Virus record (IMG/VR): IMGVR_UViG_2693429554_000013
Origin: a virus
Lineage: Duplodnaviria > Heunggongvirae > Uroviricota > Caudoviricetes
Reading direction: 5' to 3' (one strand)
DNA length: 34,429 bases
Shown here: in pieces, positions 1 through 34,429 of the stretch
Numbering within the stretch: position 1 is the first letter of the stretch
Layout: each line of letters begins with the position of its first letter
Notes under the pieces: generated by a model
What the model saw: the letters and a program-made list of their open reading frames with translations, nothing else
The model's database searches: none
Told to the model about the DNA's origin: nothing
Translations under genes and position numbers: made by a program

Positions 1-1002
1 TTACCCTCTATTGTCAAAAGGGTTCAATTCAACAGCAGCCTCTAAATGACCTGGAGCAAAATGCGCATAACGCATAGTCATTTTTATATCGCTATGCCCC
101 AGTATTTTTTGCAACACAAGAATATTTCCGCCCCGCATCATAAAATGACTGGCAAACGTGTGACGTAGCACATGAGTTAATTGCCCATCAGGAAGCTCGA
201 TCTTCGCTCTCTTAATTGCAGCGTCAAAAGCCTCATAACATGGTGAAAATAGCGCTCCTCGTTTTTTGGGAAGCATAGCCTGCAATTGAGGTGAAATCGG
301 TACAGTGCGGTTCTTCTTTCCTTTAGTTTTAACAAATGTGATTCGACCGGGCAGTACTTGAGATTGCTTTAATCCTTCTGCTTCACTCCACCGAGCACCA
401 GTCGCAAGCCCAATACGGACAACAACCCCCAAATCTTTATTCCGTGACTCATCACACGCAATCAGAAGGCGTTCAATCTCATCTACATACAGAAACGCCA
501 GTTCCTTTTCTTCCTCACGAAACTTGCGAATACCAGTCAGGGGGTTTTCACCAGACCACTCCCCAAGGCGCTTCAGTTCGGCAAAAACAGCATGTAGATA
601 TGACTGCTCGCGATTAACGGTTGCTTCACTAAGTTTTTTCTTCCCCTTGGGATTCCATTCTCCTGATAGCCTTCTTTCCCGATAAGTGGCAAACATATTT
701 TTGTCAAACTGAGAAGCAAATGGATCTCCCAGCCTGGAACAAATCGCCTCAAGTTTGACTTTGCGCTCTGCACCAGAGGACAAGGTTTTACCGTACATCT
801 CAAACCAACGAGCAATCAACTCAGAAAGACGAGGACCAGAACCATCTTGAAACTCGTCTCCAACTCTACTATTCATTAAACGGCGCTCATAAGAGAGCGC
901 CTCACTTTTTGTCGCAAACTGTTTACGAATGCGTTTTCCCGATGCCCCGTAGGGATAACATTCGCAAAGCCATTTACCTGATGGAATCTTACGAACCGAC
1001 AT
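1..1002 (-). CDS. int: Phage tyrosine integrase / site-specific recombinase
   Basis: 333 aa; C-terminal catalytic-like region ...HVLRHTFASHFMMRGGNILVLQKILGHSDIKMTMRYAH (R, H-x-x-R and terminal Y motifs typical of tyrosine recombinases); ATG at 1002, stop at 1-3. Confidence 0.9.
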   Translation of the reverse strand: MSVRKIPSGKWLCECYPYGASGKRIRKQFATKSEALSYERRLMNSRVGDEFQDGSGPRLSELIARWFEMYGKTLSSGAERKVKLEAICSRLGDPFASQFDKNMFATYRERRLSGEWNPKGKKKLSEATVNREQSYLHAVFAELKRLGEWSGENPLTGIRKFREEEKELAFLYVDEIERLLIACDESRNKDLGVVVRIGLATGARWSEAEGLKQSQVLPGRITFVKTKGKKNRTVPISPQLQAMLPKKRGALFSPCYEAFDAAIKRAKIELPDGQLTHVLRHTFASHFMMRGGNILVLQKILGHSDIKMTMRYAHFAPGHLEAAVELNPFDNRG

Positions 1003-1007
1003 TTTAG

Positions 1008-1355
1008 TTACTTATCACACAAATCAAATGCAGCCTTAGTGACATCCCCCAGGCTCTTTTTTAACCCTGGGGCGGCATCATTATCTAGCCAAAATGGATT
1101 ATTGTTATCTAACGGTAACGCACCAAATGTTTTACCTTTTATTCGAGCCAAACCTGTAAGTGCATATAACTTATTATCGTCAAAATTCATCACATAAGGA
1201 TTACCATCAAGACACTGTAATTGAACCTCATCAGTATTAAATGGCCATACCCCATTGAAACTCTCACATTCAATAGTTTTAAAAGGCATTGCGACGGCGG
1301 AAAAAGAAAACATAGATAAAAAAGTAACTAATAGTTGAACCTTTTTTACTTTCAT
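1008..1355 (-). CDS. Small secreted/periplasmic protein of unknown function (probable moron)
   Basis: 115 aa; N-terminal signal-peptide-like segment MKVKKVQLLVTFLSMFSFSAVA; several Cys in mature part; AT-rich by eye. Confidence 0.6.
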   Translation of the reverse strand: MKVKKVQLLVTFLSMFSFSAVAMPFKTIECESFNGVWPFNTDEVQLQCLDGNPYVMNFDDNKLYALTGLARIKGKTFGALPLDNNNPFWLDNDAAPGLKKSLGDVTKAAFDLCDK

Positions 1356-1384
1356 ATCATTACCTCAATTTAGCTCAAGTAAGA

Positions 1385-2035
1385 TTACAAATTAAAAAAC
1401 GCCCTAGAAATGACACCGCCTACCAAAACCCCTACGCAGATAAAGAATATTATTTCTTTTGGATAAAGCCGGATTAATTCTGAAGCACGAAGTCGGACTT
1501 CTGGTAAGGTCGAACTCTCTGTGTGGCTTGATGCCGATTGTTGCTCTAACCACGACAATGCAGACTGTAACTGAGAACGAGTAAGATCGTTTAAACGTCC
1601 TGTACCGAAATTGATATGGCAATACCGCAGAAGTTTTTGTCGAAGTCCACAGTCTTCACTGTTACGTAGTAATAAACTTACAAGAGCCTTACAGGCATCA
1701 TGATCTTTACATCGCTCAAGCATTGCATGCAGAAAACTCTCCGCTGTTTTATATTGATTTACTGTCATATCATCAATACCAGCTACACCAATCTCCGCAT
1801 GTACTTTTTGCCAAATAATAAACGCTTCAGTAGTGCTAGCTTCTGCAATAGCAGCAACCAAGCTATTTAGCTCCTTACGCTGAGCCTTAAGCAAAGGGCG
1901 ATCGTCATCATCATTATTCGAAGGGATTGCGATATTGACGGTATGAGAACCATCATATCGCTCTATCTGAATATTCTTTTCGTGAAAATCACGCCCAGCA
2001 ACGCGATTGTTTGAACCGTTTGAGTTGACGGCCAT
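1385..2035 (-). CDS. Tail-anchored membrane protein, unknown function, co-oriented with repressor
   Basis: 216 aa; single C-terminal hydrophobic helix IIFFICVGVLVGGVISRAFF; N-terminus NSNGSNNRVAGRDFHEKN resembles the repressor C-terminus; starts 15 bp after the repressor stop. Confidence 0.65.
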   Translation of the reverse strand: MAVNSNGSNNRVAGRDFHEKNIQIERYDGSHTVNIAIPSNNDDDDRPLLKAQRKELNSLVAAIAEASTTEAFIIWQKVHAEIGVAGIDDMTVNQYKTAESFLHAMLERCKDHDACKALVSLLLRNSEDCGLRQKLLRYCHINFGTGRLNDLTRSQLQSALSWLEQQSASSHTESSTLPEVRLRASELIRLYPKEIIFFICVGVLVGGVISRAFFNL

Positions 2036-5385: not shown

Positions 5386-5476
5386 GTAACCACTATGTAC
5401 ACACAAAAAAACCGCTTGCCATGCCGCAATCAGTCAGGTTACATTTCCGCTGCACCTCATAAAACGGGTGCCGGGA

Positions 5477-5694
5477 TTGGAACCCCGCTGACTATACACG
5501 CGCACAACCGCGCCAGCGGTTTTTTTGTGCGTACCGTATCGCCACGTCTTTTTCGCGTCAGAATTATGGTGGGGCGTATGGGGCCGACTTCGGTCGGGCC
5601 GGGTTCGTGTATAGCCGGTAGTTCCAACCCTGTACGTCTCACCACCCCGAGCTTGGAACCTCTGGATGGTGAGTTTTCAAAACTTACTATACAC
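5477..5694. repeat. Three copies of a bipartite motif TTGGAAC(C)-N-CTATACAC (two direct, one inverted) flanking a UUCG-loop hairpin
   Basis: Copies at 5477-5499 (direct), 5607-5629 (inverted), 5653-5694 (direct); hairpin CCGAC-TTCG-GTCGG at 5584-5597. Confidence 0.45.
5506..5527 (+). terminator. Candidate Rho-independent terminator
   Basis: Short GC stem ACCGC/GCGGT with GCCA loop followed by TTTTTT; the stem is short. Confidence 0.35.
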
Positions 5695-9279: not shown

Positions 9280-10239
9280 ATGAAAATTTGTATCGACGAC
9301 GGCTCCACCAACATCAAGCTGGCATGGACTGAGAATGGCGAACGCCGCAACGCCATCAGCCCGAACAGCTTCAAGTCGGAATGGTCTGCGCCGTTCGGTG
9401 GCATGCAGCCCGCGAACTACATGCTTGATGGCGTGCGCTATGGTTTTGATCCGGTCAGCGATCGCTTTGTCCAGACGACCGACACGCAATACCAGTACAG
9501 CGATGTGAATGTCATTGCCATTCATCACGCGCTGGTCAAATCAGGCATCACACCACAGGAAGTGGATGTGGTTGTCACCCTGCCACTGAGCGAGTATTTC
9601 GATACAAACGCACAGCCGGACATGGCCAACATCAACCGCAAAAAAGCGAACGTCATGCGCCCGGTGGAGTACCAGAACGGCGAAGCATTCACTATCCGTA
9701 ACGTACGGGTTATGCCTGAATCCATTCCGGCTGGCTTTAAGGCACTGGCTGACATGAGTCCGTTTGAATCCCTGCTGATTGTGGATTTGGGCGGAACCAC
9801 GCTGGATGTGGCAAAGGTTCAGGGGCAACTGGCAGGTATCAGCCAGGTGTTTTGCGATCCACACGTAGGCGTTTCTCTGATGGCCGATGCCGTGCTGTCG
9901 GTGATGGCCACCAACGGTATGCGCACCAGTCACCACATCGCCAATACCATTATCGAACATCGCCACGATGAAGCCTGGCTGCGCCAGCACATCCACAATG
10001 ACGCGCATTACGCCAGCCTGATGGCAGTTATTCGTGAAAAGGAGGAAACACTGAAACAACGCGTGATCCGCGCGCTGGCGGGTTTTTCGGGTTACGGGCG
10101 GGTGATGGTTGTAGGTGGAGGAGCGGAGATTGTGGCACCCGCTATCCGCGAAGCCTGCGGAGTTAATGCGACTTTCATCGCGGACGGGGTGCCACAGTTT
10201 GCTCTGGTTAATGGGCTGTACGCAATGGACAAGGAGTAA
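9280..10239 (+). CDS. parM: ParM/StbA-family actin-like segregation ATPase
   Basis: 319 aa; N-terminus MKICIDDGSTNIKLAW and motifs ISPNSFK, YQYSDVNV, LIVDLGGTTLDV match my recollection of plasmid R1 ParM. Confidence 0.85.
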   Translation: MKICIDDGSTNIKLAWTENGERRNAISPNSFKSEWSAPFGGMQPANYMLDGVRYGFDPVSDRFVQTTDTQYQYSDVNVIAIHHALVKSGITPQEVDVVVTLPLSEYFDTNAQPDMANINRKKANVMRPVEYQNGEAFTIRNVRVMPESIPAGFKALADMSPFESLLIVDLGGTTLDVAKVQGQLAGISQVFCDPHVGVSLMADAVLSVMATNGMRTSHHIANTIIEHRHDEAWLRQHIHNDAHYASLMAVIREKEETLKQRVIRALAGFSGYGRVMVVGGGAEIVAPAIREACGVNATFIADGVPQFALVNGLYAMDKE

Positions 10240-19090: not shown

Positions 19091-20239
19091 ATGACATGGC
19101 CATCTGTCACGATTGAACAGTACAACACATTCAGCAGTTCACCGGACGGCGTGGAAAATACGCTGCTGTTTGTGGGCAATGCACAAAACAACAAAGGTAA
19201 GGTTCTGCCGGTTAATGCCAACAGTGATCTGGACGAGCTACTGGGAACGAAAGCCACCCCGCTGAAGAACTTCCTTCAGTCCGCACTGACCAATGCCGGA
19301 CAGAATGCCTTTTTCTATGTTGCCGTTCTGCCGGAAGCCGGCAAGGGCAAAGAAGCGACGCCAGCCTGCCAGGCATGGCAGAACGCCATACTGGCGGCTC
19401 AGGAAACTGTTTCAGTTGAAGGCGTGGTGATCACCGAACCGGTCAGCACGAAGGATGACATCAACGCCATACAGGCGTTACGTCAGACCATCATCAATAA
19501 ATATCAGCGCCGCATCTGGTTCATCCTGACTATCGCCGCCAACGACAACAGTAAAACCTGGGCGGAATACGTTGCCGAGCTGACCACGCTACAGAAAGGC
19601 ATTGCAGCCCCGCAGGTCATGCTGGTTCCGGAGATTTTTGGATTTGAACCGGGCGTTCTTGCCGGTCGTCTGTGTAACAGCGCCGTCACCATTGCTGACA
19701 GCCCGGCACGTGTGGCAACCGGGGCGCTGTCCGCACTGAAAACCACAGAGCGCCCGAAAGACAGCGCAGGGCAGGCAATTGATCTCGACACCCTGCAGGC
19801 ACTGGCAACCGCCCGCTACAGCGTGCCCATGTGGTATGCCGACTATGACGGTCTTTACTGGGCTGACGGTGTAACACTTGAGGTGGAAGGCGGGGACTTC
19901 AACGTCATTGAGCATGTCCGCATTGCTGATAAGGTGGCGCGCCGCGTGCGGCTGATGGCCATCCCCAAGATTGCAGATCGCTCGCTGAACAGCACACCGG
20001 GCAGCATTGCCGCACATGAAACGCTGTTTGCCCGCCCACTGCGTGCCATGGCGAAATCCACGCAGATTAACGGCATCACGTTTCCGGGCGAAGTGAAATC
20101 GCCCAAGAAAGGCGACGTGGTTATCACCTGGCAGGACGAAAAGACGGTCAGCATCAGCATTGTTGTCCGCCCTTACGCCTGCCCTAAAACCATCAAAGTG
20201 GGCATTCAGCTGGATAAATCTCTGGAGGAAAACGCATGA
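19091..20239 (+). CDS. Putative tail sheath protein
   Basis: 382 aa from ATG 19091 (RBS AGGAG); immediately precedes a ~150-aa tube-like gene. Confidence 0.5.
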   Translation: MTWPSVTIEQYNTFSSSPDGVENTLLFVGNAQNNKGKVLPVNANSDLDELLGTKATPLKNFLQSALTNAGQNAFFYVAVLPEAGKGKEATPACQAWQNAILAAQETVSVEGVVITEPVSTKDDINAIQALRQTIINKYQRRIWFILTIAANDNSKTWAEYVAELTTLQKGIAAPQVMLVPEIFGFEPGVLAGRLCNSAVTIADSPARVATGALSALKTTERPKDSAGQAIDLDTLQALATARYSVPMWYADYDGLYWADGVTLEVEGGDFNVIEHVRIADKVARRVRLMAIPKIADRSLNSTPGSIAAHETLFARPLRAMAKSTQINGITFPGEVKSPKKGDVVITWQDEKTVSISIVVRPYACPKTIKVGIQLDKSLEENA

Positions 20240-20691
20240 CGACCCGCATTAACGGCATGGCGTTTGACACCTTTATCGGTGGAACGGATATCCATGTGAA
20301 AAGCATCTCACTGGACATCAGCGATGAAAGCGCCGTTGCCAAAACCCGTGGCATCCCTGACGGTAAACTGCGTGGACCTGTCAGTGCCGAAGGTGAAATC
20401 GAAATGAGTACCCGCAGCTTTAACCAGCTCGGGGAAGTAGCTGCTCAGGCGGGATCGTGGCGCGATCTGCCGCCAATGGATTTTGTGTTTTACGCCAACA
20501 CGGGCACTGAAGAAATCCGCGTCGAAGCCTTCGGTTGCGAGCTGATGCTTTCCGGCCTGTTAAGCATTGACACCGAGAGCGCAGATCTGACCACGCACAA
20601 AATCAAGTACGTGGTGGCAAGCCCTGACTTTGTGCGTATCAACGGCGTGCCCGTTCTCTCAGAGAACGACGTGCGCGGACTGATGGGGTGA
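20236..20691 (+). CDS. Putative tail tube protein
   Basis: 151 aa; ATGA overlap with sheath-like gene; size and position. Confidence 0.5.
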   Translation: MTTRINGMAFDTFIGGTDIHVKSISLDISDESAVAKTRGIPDGKLRGPVSAEGEIEMSTRSFNQLGEVAAQAGSWRDLPPMDFVFYANTGTEEIRVEAFGCELMLSGLLSIDTESADLTTHKIKYVVASPDFVRINGVPVLSENDVRGLMG

Positions 20692-20694
20692 ACC

Positions 20695-20991
20695 ATGCAG
20701 GAGCATGAGCGCACCATTATCACCCTGGGCATTCTGGGCGGAATCGCTGCCGCAAGTCGGGTGCTGGCTGGCGCAGAGCCGATTACGTTGCGGTTGTTTG
20801 TGGGTCGAACCCTGCTGGGGAGCGCGCTGGGTGTTTCTGCCGCTGCCCTGCTGGTTCGTTACCCGAACCTTGACCCACTGGCCATTGCCGGCGCAGGCAC
20901 TGCAATGGGCGTTGCCGGTTACCAGATTGTGGAAATCTTCCTGCGTCATATGCGCCGGAAGCTGGGCGAGAAAGAGAACAAAGAGGAGTAA
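20695..20991 (+). CDS. Holin-like membrane protein
   Basis: 98 aa; three hydrophobic segments and charged C-terminus RHMRRKLGEKENKEE; adjacent to endolysin. Confidence 0.55.
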   Translation: MQEHERTIITLGILGGIAAASRVLAGAEPITLRLFVGRTLLGSALGVSAAALLVRYPNLDPLAIAGAGTAMGVAGYQIVEIFLRHMRRKLGEKENKEE

Positions 20992-20996
20992 CAGCA

Positions 20997-21104
20997 ATGC
21001 TGTCCCGCAGGGAACAAAAAGCTGCCGCCATTGCATGGAAAATTATCCGGGCGTTGTGGCGCTGGCTGCGCAAACCTCAGCAACCTCATAAGGAGCAAAA
21101 ATGA
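20997..21104 (+). CDS. 35-aa basic amphipathic peptide between holin and endolysin
   Basis: ATG 20997 preceded by AAGAGGAG; stop overlaps endolysin ATG (ATGA); MLSRREQKAAAIAWKIIRALWRWLRKPQQPHKEQK. Confidence 0.3.
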   Translation: MLSRREQKAAAIAWKIIRALWRWLRKPQQPHKEQK

Positions 21105-21442
21105 AACTCTCCGATAAGCAACAACAATTTACCGTCATGATCGGAAAACTCATCGAGTTTGCCCATCAGCGCGGTTATGGCCTGACGTTCGGTGAGGCGT
21201 ACCGCACGCCAGAACAGGCAAAACTCAACGCACAAAAGGGATCCGGCATTGCCAACAGCCTGCACTGCCAGCGGCTGGCCGTGGATTTTAACCTGTTTAT
21301 TAACGGTGAATATCAGACCCGCACAGAGGCCTACCGCGAGCTGGGCGAGTACTGGGAGTCTCTTGGTGGCGCATGGGGCGGTCGTTTTAAAAAACGCCCG
21401 GATGGCAATCATTTCAGCCTTGAGCACGACGGCGTGCGCTGA
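21101..21442 (+). CDS. Endolysin, M15-family-like peptidoglycan peptidase
   Basis: 113 aa; His/Asp-containing segments (FAHQRGYG, LHCQRLAVDF, GNHFSLEHD) consistent with small zinc peptidase endolysins. Confidence 0.65.
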   Translation: MKLSDKQQQFTVMIGKLIEFAHQRGYGLTFGEAYRTPEQAKLNAQKGSGIANSLHCQRLAVDFNLFINGEYQTRTEAYRELGEYWESLGGAWGGRFKKRPDGNHFSLEHDGVR

Positions 21443-21513
21443 TTTTACGCTTAATAAGCCTTCCTGCAGGCTTATTAAGCCCTCTTATTCTTGACATTTA
21501 ACAGGACATTATT

Positions 21514-21807
21514 ATGGGCACCATTATTCGCGAGCAAAACATCGAAACAGACAACACCATCACTTTACAGGTCGGTGAACATGAACTGACATTTATCCCG
21601 ACCGTTAAAGCCTACAACGACCTGCAGAACGATTTCATGCCGGATAACAAAATCGCGCCGCTGAAAAACTACCTGCGCCGCATCGTGATTAAAGAGCACC
21701 GCGATCTGCTTAACCAGTTGCTGGAAAAACCAGGAATGCCGGCCAGCCTGGCAACAGCCGTGAATAACGAGTTTGTGCCGGAAGTGGAAATCACCGTAAA
21801 AAAATAA
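21514..21807 (+). CDS. Tail assembly chaperone (P2 gpE / lambda gpG analogue)
   Basis: 97 aa directly upstream of tape measure; ends at a slippery A_AAA_AAA run. Confidence 0.6.
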   Translation: MGTIIREQNIETDNTITLQVGEHELTFIPTVKAYNDLQNDFMPDNKIAPLKNYLRRIVIKEHRDLLNQLLEKPGMPASLATAVNNEFVPEVEITVKK

Positions 21808-21995
21808 AAAGCCATCTGGGGGCCATTGATCGCAATGACCTTACCCGGATGCTGATCCTGCGCCGCCACTGGCTGCCCGGCGAGGATGACTCGCCGCAGT
21901 CACTGGCTGCCGCCGTCTGGCTGGATAACCACTACTGGGAAAATATGAGCATCGCCGTCAATAACGGCATTATCCGTGCTTTTAAGGGATCGTAA
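21798..21995 (+). CDS. Minus-1 frameshift extension of the tail assembly chaperone (E+E'-like product)
   Basis: The -1 frame is open for 65 codons from the heptamer to a TAA whose last base is the first base of the tape-measure ATG. Confidence 0.5.
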   Translation, partial: KKIKSHLGAIDRNDLTRMLILRRHWLPGEDDSPQSLAAAVWLDNHYWENMSIAVNNGIIRAFKGS

Positions 21996-24091
21996 TGTCA
22001 CAACAGCGCCTTGAATTACTTCTTGAACTGACAGACCGCCTGACAAGGCCGTTGCGTGCAGCCGGACGACAGGTTCAGGGATTTGCTGCAACAAGTCGGG
22101 GAGCCTTTCGGGACATTGCTACCGGAGGCGCTGCGCTCTGGGGAGTGGGTGCAGCCATTCAGGGGGCACTGATGCCAGCCATTGAAATGGACAGGGCGCT
22201 CGGTGAGGTGAAATCACTGGGCGTCGCAGAGTCCGGATTGCGTAAACTCAGCCGCGCCGCCGTTGATTTCACTATGGAATACGGCGGGGCTGCGCAGGAT
22301 TTTGTGCGTGCTTCTTACGACATCCAGTCAGCCATTGCCGGGTTAACTGACGATGAGCTGTCCCGCTTCACCACCGCATCAGCAACGGTGGCAGCAGCAA
22401 CCAAATCCAGCAGCCAGACCATTACCGCCTACATGGGCACCATGTACGGCATCTTTAAAGACCAGGCTGATGCCATGGGAAAAAGCAAATGGGTGGAGCA
22501 GGTCGCCGGGCAAACCGCCACCGCCGTGCAAATGTTTAAAACAACCGGCGATAACATGTCAGCAGCGTTCACCACGCTGGGTGCCAGTGCAAAAGCGGCC
22601 GGTATTGATGCGGCTGAACAGTTCGCCGTGCTGGGACAACTACAGGCCACCATGAGTGGCAGCGAGGCCGGGACAAAATACAAGGCATTTCTTGCCGCAG
22701 TAGGCAGCGCCCAGAAAAAGCTGGGGCTTAATTTCGTGAATAAAGACGGCACGATGAAAAGTGTTGTCGAGATCATGAAACTTATCAGGGGTAAATTTGG
22801 TGATCTGTCAAAAGTGGCTGATTCCGATTTGCTGAAAAGCGCCTTTGGCTCCGATGAAGCTGTGGCCATGATTAAATTACTCAATGCGGACATTGGCGGA
22901 CTTGAAAAGAATATCGCCACGCTGGGCAATATCAAAGGTATGGATAAGGCTGTCGAAATGGCGCAGGCCATGGCTGATCCATGGGAACAGGCCGCCGCAA
23001 TTATTAACGGCATTCGCATCGAAATCGGCACGCAGTTGCTGCCTGTTCTGTACCCGTTTATCCAGAAAAGCAACGAAGGCGGTAAATCCTTTGTTGCCTG
23101 GTTACGTCTGTATCCCAATATCACACGGGCTATTGGTTTACTGTCTGCCGCCCTGCTGGGCATTGCCGCAGTGGGTGCCGTTGTCAACATTATGGTGGGT
23201 GTGGCGAAGTTTGTCTGGACAGGACTGCGGCTGGTCTGGCTGGCAGCAGTTGCACCCCTGAAGATTCTCATTCTGCTGAAACGCACACTGACGGCTACCA
23301 TGTGGGCATTCACTGTAGTTGCCCGAACGGTCAGGGCGTTGTATCTGGCCATGTCCATTGCTATGGGAACATACAACGTCAAAGCAAAAATTCAGCTGGC
23401 GCTGCTGAAATTACAGCGCGCCGGACTCTGGCTTTATTCTGTTGCGCTGGGTGCCGCCGGCATAGCAATGAAAATCTACACCGCAGTCACCAGCGGAGCT
23501 GCAATTGCAACACAGTTACTTTTCAGCCCCATCACATTAATCATCCTGGCACTGGCTGCGCTGGGCGTGGGCATTTATTTCCTGATCACCCGCTGGGATG
23601 AGATTAAAGTCGCGCTGATGGATACTGCCGCCTTTCAGTGGGTGGCTGAAATGGTCGGCAGTATGGGGGCATGGTTCGGCAATGCATGGAACACAATCCA
23701 GGACGGCTGGAATGCACTGGTTAACTATTTTTCCACGCATTCACCACTGGATGCCCTGAAGGATCTCGCGGGCGGCATCCTGAATATTTTCAGTAACCTC
23801 TGGGAACTGGTGAAACAGTCCTTCAGTGATTCATGGGGCTGGATTGTAGGCAAGCTCAACATGATCCCCGGCGTCAATATCGACACACCGGAAAGCACAG
23901 GAAGTGGCGAAGGCTCCGTATTAACCGGCGGCAAAGCCATCAGTGCGGGACCGGGCGGCATTGCGGCAGAGATGCAGAACAACAGCGAAAACCAGACCAC
24001 CATCGACAACTCCCGTCGTGTGGTTAACGTCAATGTGCAGGATCCATCCCCTGCCCGTCTTAACGAGTGGATGGAGCTGCATGCATACTGA
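21995..24091 (+). CDS. Tail tape measure protein
   Basis: 698 aa; Ala/Gly-rich helical N-terminal half and hydrophobic central segments; position after chaperone. Confidence 0.85.
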   Translation: MSQQRLELLLELTDRLTRPLRAAGRQVQGFAATSRGAFRDIATGGAALWGVGAAIQGALMPAIEMDRALGEVKSLGVAESGLRKLSRAAVDFTMEYGGAAQDFVRASYDIQSAIAGLTDDELSRFTTASATVAAATKSSSQTITAYMGTMYGIFKDQADAMGKSKWVEQVAGQTATAVQMFKTTGDNMSAAFTTLGASAKAAGIDAAEQFAVLGQLQATMSGSEAGTKYKAFLAAVGSAQKKLGLNFVNKDGTMKSVVEIMKLIRGKFGDLSKVADSDLLKSAFGSDEAVAMIKLLNADIGGLEKNIATLGNIKGMDKAVEMAQAMADPWEQAAAIINGIRIEIGTQLLPVLYPFIQKSNEGGKSFVAWLRLYPNITRAIGLLSAALLGIAAVGAVVNIMVGVAKFVWTGLRLVWLAAVAPLKILILLKRTLTATMWAFTVVARTVRALYLAMSIAMGTYNVKAKIQLALLKLQRAGLWLYSVALGAAGIAMKIYTAVTSGAAIATQLLFSPITLIILALAALGVGIYFLITRWDEIKVALMDTAAFQWVAEMVGSMGAWFGNAWNTIQDGWNALVNYFSTHSPLDALKDLAGGILNIFSNLWELVKQSFSDSWGWIVGKLNMIPGVNIDTPESTGSGEGSVLTGGKAISAGPGGIAAEMQNNSENQTTIDNSRRVVNVNVQDPSPARLNEWMELHAY

Positions 24092-34288: not shown

Positions 34289-34429
34289 ATGTCGCAAAAA
34301 TCGCTTACGGCCATCACGTTCTGCGTGACGGTAATCCTCATCATCTGGATGCTGCACGGTTCGCTGTGTGAAATACGGATGAGCTTCTGGGGAGCGGAGT
34401 TTGCGGCGTTCTTACAGTGTAAGCAGTAA
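34289..34429 (+). CDS. hok: Hok/Gef-family type I toxin peptide (HokA-like)
   Basis: 46 aa MSQKSLTAITFCVTVILIIWMLHGSLCEIRMSFWGAEFAAFLQCKQ; TM helix plus SLCEIR...AAF signature; SD AAAGGAG 7 bp upstream. Confidence 0.75.
   Translation: MSQKSLTAITFCVTVILIIWMLHGSLCEIRMSFWGAEFAAFLQCKQ

Follow-up and report, generated by a model that had tools for sequence, protein, structure and literature searches.

We describe a small cationic peptide gene within the lysis cassette of a complete P2-family (Peduoviridae) prophage (IMG/VR record IMGVR_UViG_2693429554_000013), recovered as a stretch of 34,429 nucleotides (nt) that we refer to as the window, in which the spanin genes carried by its close relatives are missing. 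The gene is a 35-codon open reading frame (ORF) set between the holin and endolysin genes. It shows selection specific to its own frame, and three further spanin-less lineages carry a counterpart at the same position. We judge it about evenly balanced whether this ORF is a real late lysis gene whose product, a soluble, cationic, Trp/Arg-rich amphipathic helix, replaces the lost pair of inner- and outer-membrane spanins (i- and o-spanin) at the outer membrane. By analogy, the peptide is best read as a counterpart of gp28, the disruptin of Escherichia phage phiKT, in function but not by homology.

Lysis cassette of the prophage

The cassette occupies the interval between the tail tube and the tail assembly chaperone genes, with the following features (window coordinates).

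20236–20691, plus strand: tail tube, the upstream boundary of the cassette (PF10772 Phage_HP1_Orf24, E = 1e-50; phrog_1182, tail protein)
20695–20991, plus strand: holin of 98 amino acids (aa) with a charged C-terminal tail (PF04550, E = 5.5e-28; phrog_175, holin, E = 1e-32)
20983–20988, plus strand: Shine–Dalgarno sequence GAGGAG of the 35-codon ORF, within the final codons of the holin gene, 8 nt upstream of the ATG
20997–21104, plus strand: gene for a 35-aa cationic amphipathic peptide, candidate disruptin-like (frame-specific selection; homologues at the same position)
21090–21095, plus strand: Shine–Dalgarno sequence AAGGAG of the endolysin, within the last codons of the peptide ORF
21101–21442, plus strand: M15 metallopeptidase endolysin, 113 aa, cytoplasmic (PF13539 Peptidase_M15_4, E = 4e-11; endolysin families phrog_1768, phrog_465 and phrog_2649)
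21449–21492, plus strand: 13-bp stem-loop (21449–21480) and U-rich tract (terminator scan, fold energy, covariation)
21514–21807, plus strand: tail assembly chaperone, the downstream boundary of the cassette (PF10963, E = 1.6e-26)

The 35-codon ORF starts 5 nt past the holin stop, its TGA overlaps the endolysin ATG (ATGA), and 71 nt separate the endolysin from the chaperone. A preliminary description of this DNA, made from the letters alone, had placed a holin, a 35-codon ORF and an M15 endolysin between tube and chaperone, with the peptide stop overlapping the endolysin start, and both points hold. It had also remarked that the cassette lies inside the tail operon rather than after the head genes; the location is right, but it is standard in HP1/ESSI-2-like Peduoviridae and, being the normal HP1-like layout, is not notable in itself.

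The holin matches PF04550 at 97.7 bits (gathering cut-off 25), with transmembrane segments at residues 8–26 and 36–54 and a weaker third by eye, and has a single start with no dual-start motif. The endolysin matches Peptidase_M15_4 at 43.7 bits (gathering cut-off 25); no signal sequence, signal-anchor-release (SAR) segment, transmembrane or hydrophobic segment was found in it, and it would therefore need a hole-forming holin.

Spanin genes in relatives and their absence from the window

The preliminary description had noted no Rz/Rz1-like lipoprotein or embedded spanin nearby, and dedicated searches agree. A tblastn search with 18 i- and o-spanins taken from relatives returned nothing at E ≤ 0.05 anywhere in the window, while the same search recovered positive controls, and a six-frame lipobox scan of the window gave only out-of-frame or antisense artefacts and no credible lipoprotein ORF. 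Nor did the window contain a credible lipobox ORF that could represent a unimolecular spanin of the T1 gp11 type. A canonical spanin elsewhere in the prophage, which the preliminary description had named as a finding that would count against its proposal, did not appear between the integrase and the Hok/Gef gene of the window or in two other complete copies (L004 and L108); these three copies, from two lineages, all lack a spanin homologue and a credible lipoprotein ORF.

Two sets of candidates were rejected. An alternative-frame ORF in the endolysin gene (21192–21494) carries the motif LPTAC but has no hydrophobic signal region, and its frame is also open in relatives with true spanins; it is not an o-spanin. 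Beside the integrase are genes for a 115-aa secreted and a 216-aa C-tail-anchored protein, either of which might have been an unusual substitute for spanins; both belong to the lysogeny module on the opposite strand, and other prophages of the lineage do not have them.

The relatives present a different picture. Scanning one genome per bacterial species with the endolysin gave 38 loci, 36 of them in enterobacteria other than Escherichia. Wherever holin and endolysin could both be resolved in these 36 genomes, the holin ORF stops at the start of the endolysin or runs into it. In the 35 genomes with the chaperone located, the stretch from endolysin to chaperone measures 464–524 nt (two Yersinia genomes with an additional ORF reach about 920 nt). 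This spanin-sized stretch holds an ORF of approximately 110–130 aa, with an N-terminal hydrophobic segment in those that were read, and in most cases an overlapping ORF with a lipobox such as LSAC or LSGC. One relative's ORF pair was confirmed as phrog_1152 and phrog_456 (‘Rz-like spanin’), and spanin annotations exist for others. In two other E. coli prophages, too, the holin abuts the endolysin and a spanin-sized insert comes next. Among the relatives peptide and spanins are mutually exclusive: spanin-bearing relatives have no peptide, and peptide-bearing ones have no spanins.

Four spanin-less lineages with a cationic peptide

The arrangement seen in the window recurs in Escherichia albertii NBRC 107761 and in 41 complete E. 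coli genomes (97–98.5% identical over 2.2 kb around the cassette); all of them have 109 additional nt separating holin from endolysin and only 71 nt separating endolysin from chaperone. No similarity to this 109-nt insert or 71-nt gap that would indicate their origin was found in the spanin-bearing relatives, the rest of the window or phage records. Homologues of the peptide were sought with degenerate DNA patterns, exact cluster look-up, an HMMER search against 1.84 billion representatives and a profile search; the HMMER search, together with a scan of viral contigs by holin and a search of E. coli genomes, yielded three further lineages, each with the peptide between holin and endolysin and no spanins.

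L070: metagenome, 39-aa peptide
L103/P0031: E. coli, 41-aa peptide
L105/P0041: E. coli E7-1N7, 35-aa peptide

Long repetitive proteins from the HMMER search (P0027, P0028 and P0030) were set aside as low-complexity artefacts, and four pattern matches (L055, L071, L072 and L078) as chance.

The tube proteins of the four lineages are 81–92% identical to one another and 45–54% identical to those of spanin-bearing relatives. Across the same lineages the holins are 69–80%, the endolysins 81–94% and the peptides 15–56% identical, and a common core is visible in the peptide alignment despite this low identity. All four peptides are 35–41 aa long, carry a net charge of +7 to +9, have a hydrophobic moment (µH) of 0.51–0.64 and lack a transmembrane segment; in every lineage the ORF abuts or overlaps both neighbours, and the gap between endolysin and chaperone is 71–93 nt with no spanin. 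Rapid sequence change with charge and amphipathicity retained is the pattern that one would expect of a membrane-active peptide and not of a chance ORF or a pure spacer.

Conservation and selection on the peptide gene

Conservation of the ORF, on which the proposal in the preliminary description depended, is borne out by purifying selection specific to its own frame and by the homologues in the three further lineages. Among 25 copies of the gene (10 nucleotide alleles), the ratio of non-synonymous to synonymous polymorphism (pN/pS) is 0.17 in the frame of the peptide, and the two remaining sense frames yield 0.79 and 1.09; for tube, holin and endolysin it is 0.09, 0.05 and 0.07, respectively, at pS of 0.08–0.15. 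Between the window and L070, where pS reaches 0.57, the ratio is 0.36 in frame and 0.69 and 2.8 in the other frames. Length variants of 32, 34 and 38 aa are all in frame, and the premature-stop alleles, of 33 aa (Q34*, four copies) and 27 aa (Q28*, one copy), leave the helix intact and lose only the tail.

Exact-sequence look-up placed the peptide in two 90% clusters with 61 distinct sequences, the commonest allele occurring on at least 1,000 contigs. The annotation pipeline PGAP leaves the ORF uncalled, and other pipelines call it a hypothetical protein (for example, UniRef A0A2X6GE95). A frameshift fusion of peptide and endolysin at CAA_AAA_TGA was also considered and rejected: the frame relation differs between lineages (−1 in lineage A, +1 in lineage B) and Q34* would abolish the fusion.

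Sequence and predicted properties of the peptide

The product of the 35-codon ORF is MLSRREQKAAAIAWKIIRALWRWLRKPQQPHKEQK, a Trp/Arg-rich peptide with three Trp residues and a net charge of +8. No transmembrane segment is present in it, the highest Kyte–Doolittle value of any 19-residue window being 0.24. Residues 7–26 form a predicted amphipathic helix with a basic face of K8, K15, R18, R22, R25 and K26 and a hydrophobic face of I, W, I, I, L, W, W and L, and a single-sequence AlphaFold2 model is helical from residue 4 to 24, with a mean predicted local distance difference test (pLDDT) score of 75. Over 18 residues µH is 0.64, a value reached by 66 of 5,000 shuffles of the peptide; the same measure gives 0.78 for LL-37, 0.62 for cecropin A, 0.55 for melittin and 0.52 for both magainin and gp28.

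Pfam, PHROGs and NCBIfam contain no family match for the peptide, which shows no homology to any known regulator; a weak Pfam hit to PF10206 (WRW) is spurious, at 18.5 bits against a cut-off of 26.5. Within the window lineage the helix is nearly invariant apart from codon 22 (21060–21062), on its polar face, a single hypervariable position that alternates between R, Y, H and C among alleles.

Proposed mechanism and alternative explanations

From the gene arrangement, the lack of spanins, the conservation and the physico-chemical properties of the peptide we infer translation of the ORF, membrane activity of its product and a role at the outer membrane. Holin, peptide and endolysin would be translated in series from the late tail-operon transcript, each from its own Shine–Dalgarno sequence, and the peptide and the signal-less M15 endolysin would build up in the cytoplasm. 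Triggering of the holin would let both into the periplasm, where the endolysin would cut peptidoglycan and the peptide would bind and destabilize the outer membrane in the manner of a cationic antimicrobial peptide, so that lysis would be completed without a membrane-spanning complex. The preliminary description had offered three roles for the peptide, namely antiholin, lysis regulator or membrane-disrupting spanin substitute. The last fits best, because peptide and spanins are mutually exclusive among relatives.

Several observations weigh against this reading, for which all the evidence is comparative. An ORF filling the 109-nt spacer arises in 21% of its dinucleotide shuffles, and for this reason we do not use the mere existence of the ORF as evidence; what points to a real gene is the comparison with other copies, that is, the frame-specific pN/pS, the in-frame indels and the retention in four lineages. 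The peptide gene is under weaker selection (0.17) than the neighbouring genes (0.05–0.09), and rare frameshifted alleles exist (n = 2; P0044 and P0045). The four lineages form one clade and inherited the peptide-positive, spanin-negative state from a common ancestor, which makes the association of peptide gain with spanin loss a single evolutionary event. The inner membrane or the holin would be equally plausible targets of a cytoplasmic cationic helix, and blastp aligned the peptide with gp28 at no threshold, even E = 1,000. Finally, no isolated phage in INPHARED carries the peptide (tblastn, 50,697 phage records), and lytic competence of the clade is therefore only inferred; it appears functional, given the strong purifying selection on tube, holin and endolysin and the full P2-type gene set.

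An action on the inner membrane leads to the most serious competitor, itself unlikely in our estimate, in which the peptide would be an antiholin or holin modulator that binds the inner membrane face or the charged C-terminal tail of the holin and delays or sharpens triggering, the loss of spanins being unrelated or tolerated. The ORF directly follows the holin, whose stop it overlaps (ATGA/GTGA) in lineages B and C, so that the two would be made in step; soluble cytoplasmic lysis regulators exist, T4 RIII among them; and the window holin has no dual start of the kind found in some spanin-bearing relatives (MDKKAGMQEY in L006, MDKDNAGMQEH in L011). Most spanin-bearing relatives, however, also have no dual start and manage without such a peptide, which differs from most antiholins in having no transmembrane segment and resembles no known regulator. 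On sequence alone it may still represent a soluble regulator of a new type, distinct from the characterized T4 RI/RIII and P1 LydB. A regulatory role would also leave unexplained how a strongly selected, spanin-less clade gets past the outer membrane.

The same tight or overlapping junctions, present on both sides of the ORF in all four lineages, would suit a translated spacer that couples endolysin to holin translation or sets their ratio, with a product that has no role of its own, as would the endolysin Shine–Dalgarno sequence inside the 3′ end of the ORF and the rapid divergence of the peptide (15–56% identity). We regard this as improbable: spanin-bearing relatives couple the two genes by direct overlap and without a spacer, a spacer would not be expected to preserve a charge of +7 to +9, an amphipathic helix and a frame-specific pN/pS of 0.17, and the truncation alleles (Q34*, Q28*) uncouple the stop from the endolysin ATG yet each occurs among the copies. 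Least probable of all, and quite doubtful, is that the rearrangement which deleted the spanins left the ORF behind as a non-functional by-product, in prophages that are lysis-impaired relics or rely on shear or endolysin alone. The shuffling result, the lack of a PGAP call, the frameshifted and truncated alleles and the want of a cultured phage with the ORF are all compatible with this. A by-product would nevertheless have to be kept in four lineages in which tube, holin and endolysin are 69–94% identical and synonymous divergence against L070 rises to 0.57, with selection confined to one frame, indels in frame and strong purifying selection on all the clade's structural and lysis genes.

A hairpin at the spanin position

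Where relatives carry spanin genes, the window has a 13-bp stem-loop (21449–21480) followed by CCUCUUAUUCUU. It is the top terminator-like site of a regional scan (−21.6 kcal/mol, z = −4.2) and each of the four lineages without spanins retains it, 4 of its 13 stem pairs showing compensatory changes; it was found nowhere else in E. coli genomes or phage records. By its sequence the element looks like an intrinsic terminator, although it sits in the middle of the tail operon, and it could be a partial terminator or an element of transcript stability or processing.

Other features of the prophage

The prophage runs from an integrase to a Hok/Gef gene, with a full set of head and tail genes, and encodes an Ogr/Delta late activator. 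Beyond the cassette, the following genes serve as landmarks.

1–1002, minus strand: integrase, at the left end of the window
19091–20239: sheath (DUF2586)
21849–21995: DUF6890, downstream of the chaperone
21995–24091: tape measure, downstream of DUF6890

The left end comprises the integrase, two accessory genes and the repressor; an initial guess of an IS66 element there, made from ORF sizes, was wrong. The accessory genes (1008–2035, minus strand) lie between integrase and repressor and encode the 115-aa secreted protein, a DUF2511 member with a Sec signal, and the 216-aa protein, which has one C-terminal transmembrane segment and no family match. Both are missing from the otherwise near-identical prophage of E. 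coli 700481 and are therefore probably lysogenic-conversion or exclusion genes.

In the early region, Rfam models match isrK at 5452–5526 (68.7 bits) and C4 antisense RNA at 5562–5649 (81.3 bits), so that 5452–5649 corresponds to a P1/P7-type antisense immunity element within a P2-family prophage. A 319-aa ORF at 9280–10239 occupies the place where the related E. coli 700481 prophage is annotated, downstream of its own replication gene, with ParM and a partitioning/stability protein; partitioning genes are unusual in an integrated P2-like element and may hint at a plasmid-like phase. At the opposite end, an ORF for a Hok/Gef-family toxin (34289–34429; PF01848, E = 4e-7) lies just past the last tail/baseplate gene, and related E. 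coli prophages have a Hok/Gef ORF at the same place.

Two further observations concern the chaperone. Its gene ends in GTA AAA AAA TAA (within 21796–21995), which contains an A_AAA_AAA slippery heptamer, and the −1 frame is open into the DUF6890 ORF. On these grounds DUF6890 is most likely a frameshift extension of the chaperone, of the P2 gpE/E′ type, and not a separate gene as annotated by PGAP. The start of the gene (21496–21560) differs from all other copies of the lineage by several substitutions and indels (MGTIIREQNIETDN... versus MMMNDKNTQTTAEN...), in DNA whose flanks are 97–100% identical to the other copies, a pattern that suggests a small local recombination patch.

Implications for spanin replacement

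Some 13–15% of phages of Gram-negative hosts have no recognizable spanin. To our knowledge, gp28 of phiKT is the only alternative outer-membrane disruptor to have been characterized. A paper of January 2026 treats gp28 as the archetype and calls it open how general disruptins are among phages that lack spanins (PMC12819732). That the peptide family described here is a second, independently evolved disruptin lineage, which took the place of an ancestral spanin pair in one clade of temperate myoviruses of E. coli, is a bolder proposal that we put at somewhat short of an even chance. Were it true, sister prophages in the same host species would differ mainly in their outer-membrane device, replacement of spanins by a disruptin would be an accessible evolutionary route, and the hairpin would be part of the new module, possibly as a terminator or RNA-stability element that separates lysis from distal tail expression. 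It would also supply a second disruptin family, a search rule, namely to look in phages without spanins for a small cationic ORF inside the lysis cassette, and a new scaffold, of natural origin, for membrane-active peptides.

E. coli offers a natural comparison in this respect, with homologous prophages that carry either spanins or a cationic peptide of 35–41 aa, and the four diverged peptide sequences show which properties are conserved. The established complementation assay for lambda Rz/Rz1 is a direct test of the disruptin hypothesis.

Comparison with known systems

The closest parallel is gp28 of Escherichia phage phiKT, a membrane-associated protein of 56 aa with a charge of +7 and a predicted amphipathic helix, which complements an Rz/Rz1 defect of lambda, comes from a spanin-less phage and is bactericidal on a par with LL-37 (Holt et al.; bioRxiv 10.1101/515445). 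Its gene (JN882298, 37102–37272) lies between those of endolysin gp27 and holin gp29. Homologues of gp28 were known from only one near-identical phage (10.1101/515445), and the disruptin class is accordingly defined by function and not by sequence. The criteria that we applied were a length below 80 aa, a charge of at least +4, no transmembrane segment or signal sequence, an amphipathic helix, and a gene in the lysis cassette of a spanin-less phage that infects a Gram-negative host; the window peptide lies within the limits of size and charge, has a predicted amphipathic helix and is encoded in a spanin-less lysis cassette. Like gp28 it is a small, soluble, cationic, helical peptide (+8 here, +7 for gp28) without a signal sequence, encoded between holin and endolysin, and the holins of the two phages belong to the same Pfam family, PF04550, in cassettes without a spanin. 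The differences are equally plain: gp28 is longer and Lys/Val-rich, whereas the window peptide has 35 aa and is Trp/Arg-rich; phiKT is a virulent podovirus with a lysozyme, whereas the window comes from a temperate myovirus of the P2 family whose endolysin is an M15 peptidase; and gp28 has been tested experimentally, whereas the window peptide is known from sequence. Unlike in the phiKT case, close relatives here still carry spanins, which is what allows replacement to be proposed.

Among Peduoviridae, the gene order of Haemophilus phage HP1 is sheath, tube, hol, lys, Rz-like spanin, orf26 and tape measure, and that shared by Yersinia phage vB_YenM_324 and Salmonella phage SI7 is sheath, tube, holin, M15 endolysin, i-spanin and chaperone, with an o-spanin annotated in vB_YenM_324 only. 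The order of sheath, tube, holin, endolysin, chaperone and tape measure in the window is that of HP1, ESSI-2, SI7 and vB_YenM_324, and its tube and chaperone are homologous to those of such phages, as is its M15 endolysin except in the case of HP1. In those phages the holin abuts the endolysin and an i-/o-spanin pair (in HP1 one gene, ‘Rz-like spanin’) precedes the chaperone, whereas in the window a peptide gene is inserted and a 71-nt hairpin-containing spacer stands in place of the spanins.

With the lambda Rz/Rz1-type spanins the peptide would share the outer-membrane step, and it is encoded in the same cassette. Two-component spanins consist of an inner-membrane protein and an outer-membrane lipoprotein that span the periplasm and fuse the membranes; the peptide, in contrast, has neither a transmembrane segment nor a lipobox and is too short to span anything. 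In length, net charge, hydrophobic moment and amphipathic helicity it resembles LL-37, cecropin, melittin and magainin, but these are secreted host-defence peptides that act from outside, whereas the window peptide would be cytoplasmic and would act from inside once the holin has opened the inner membrane.

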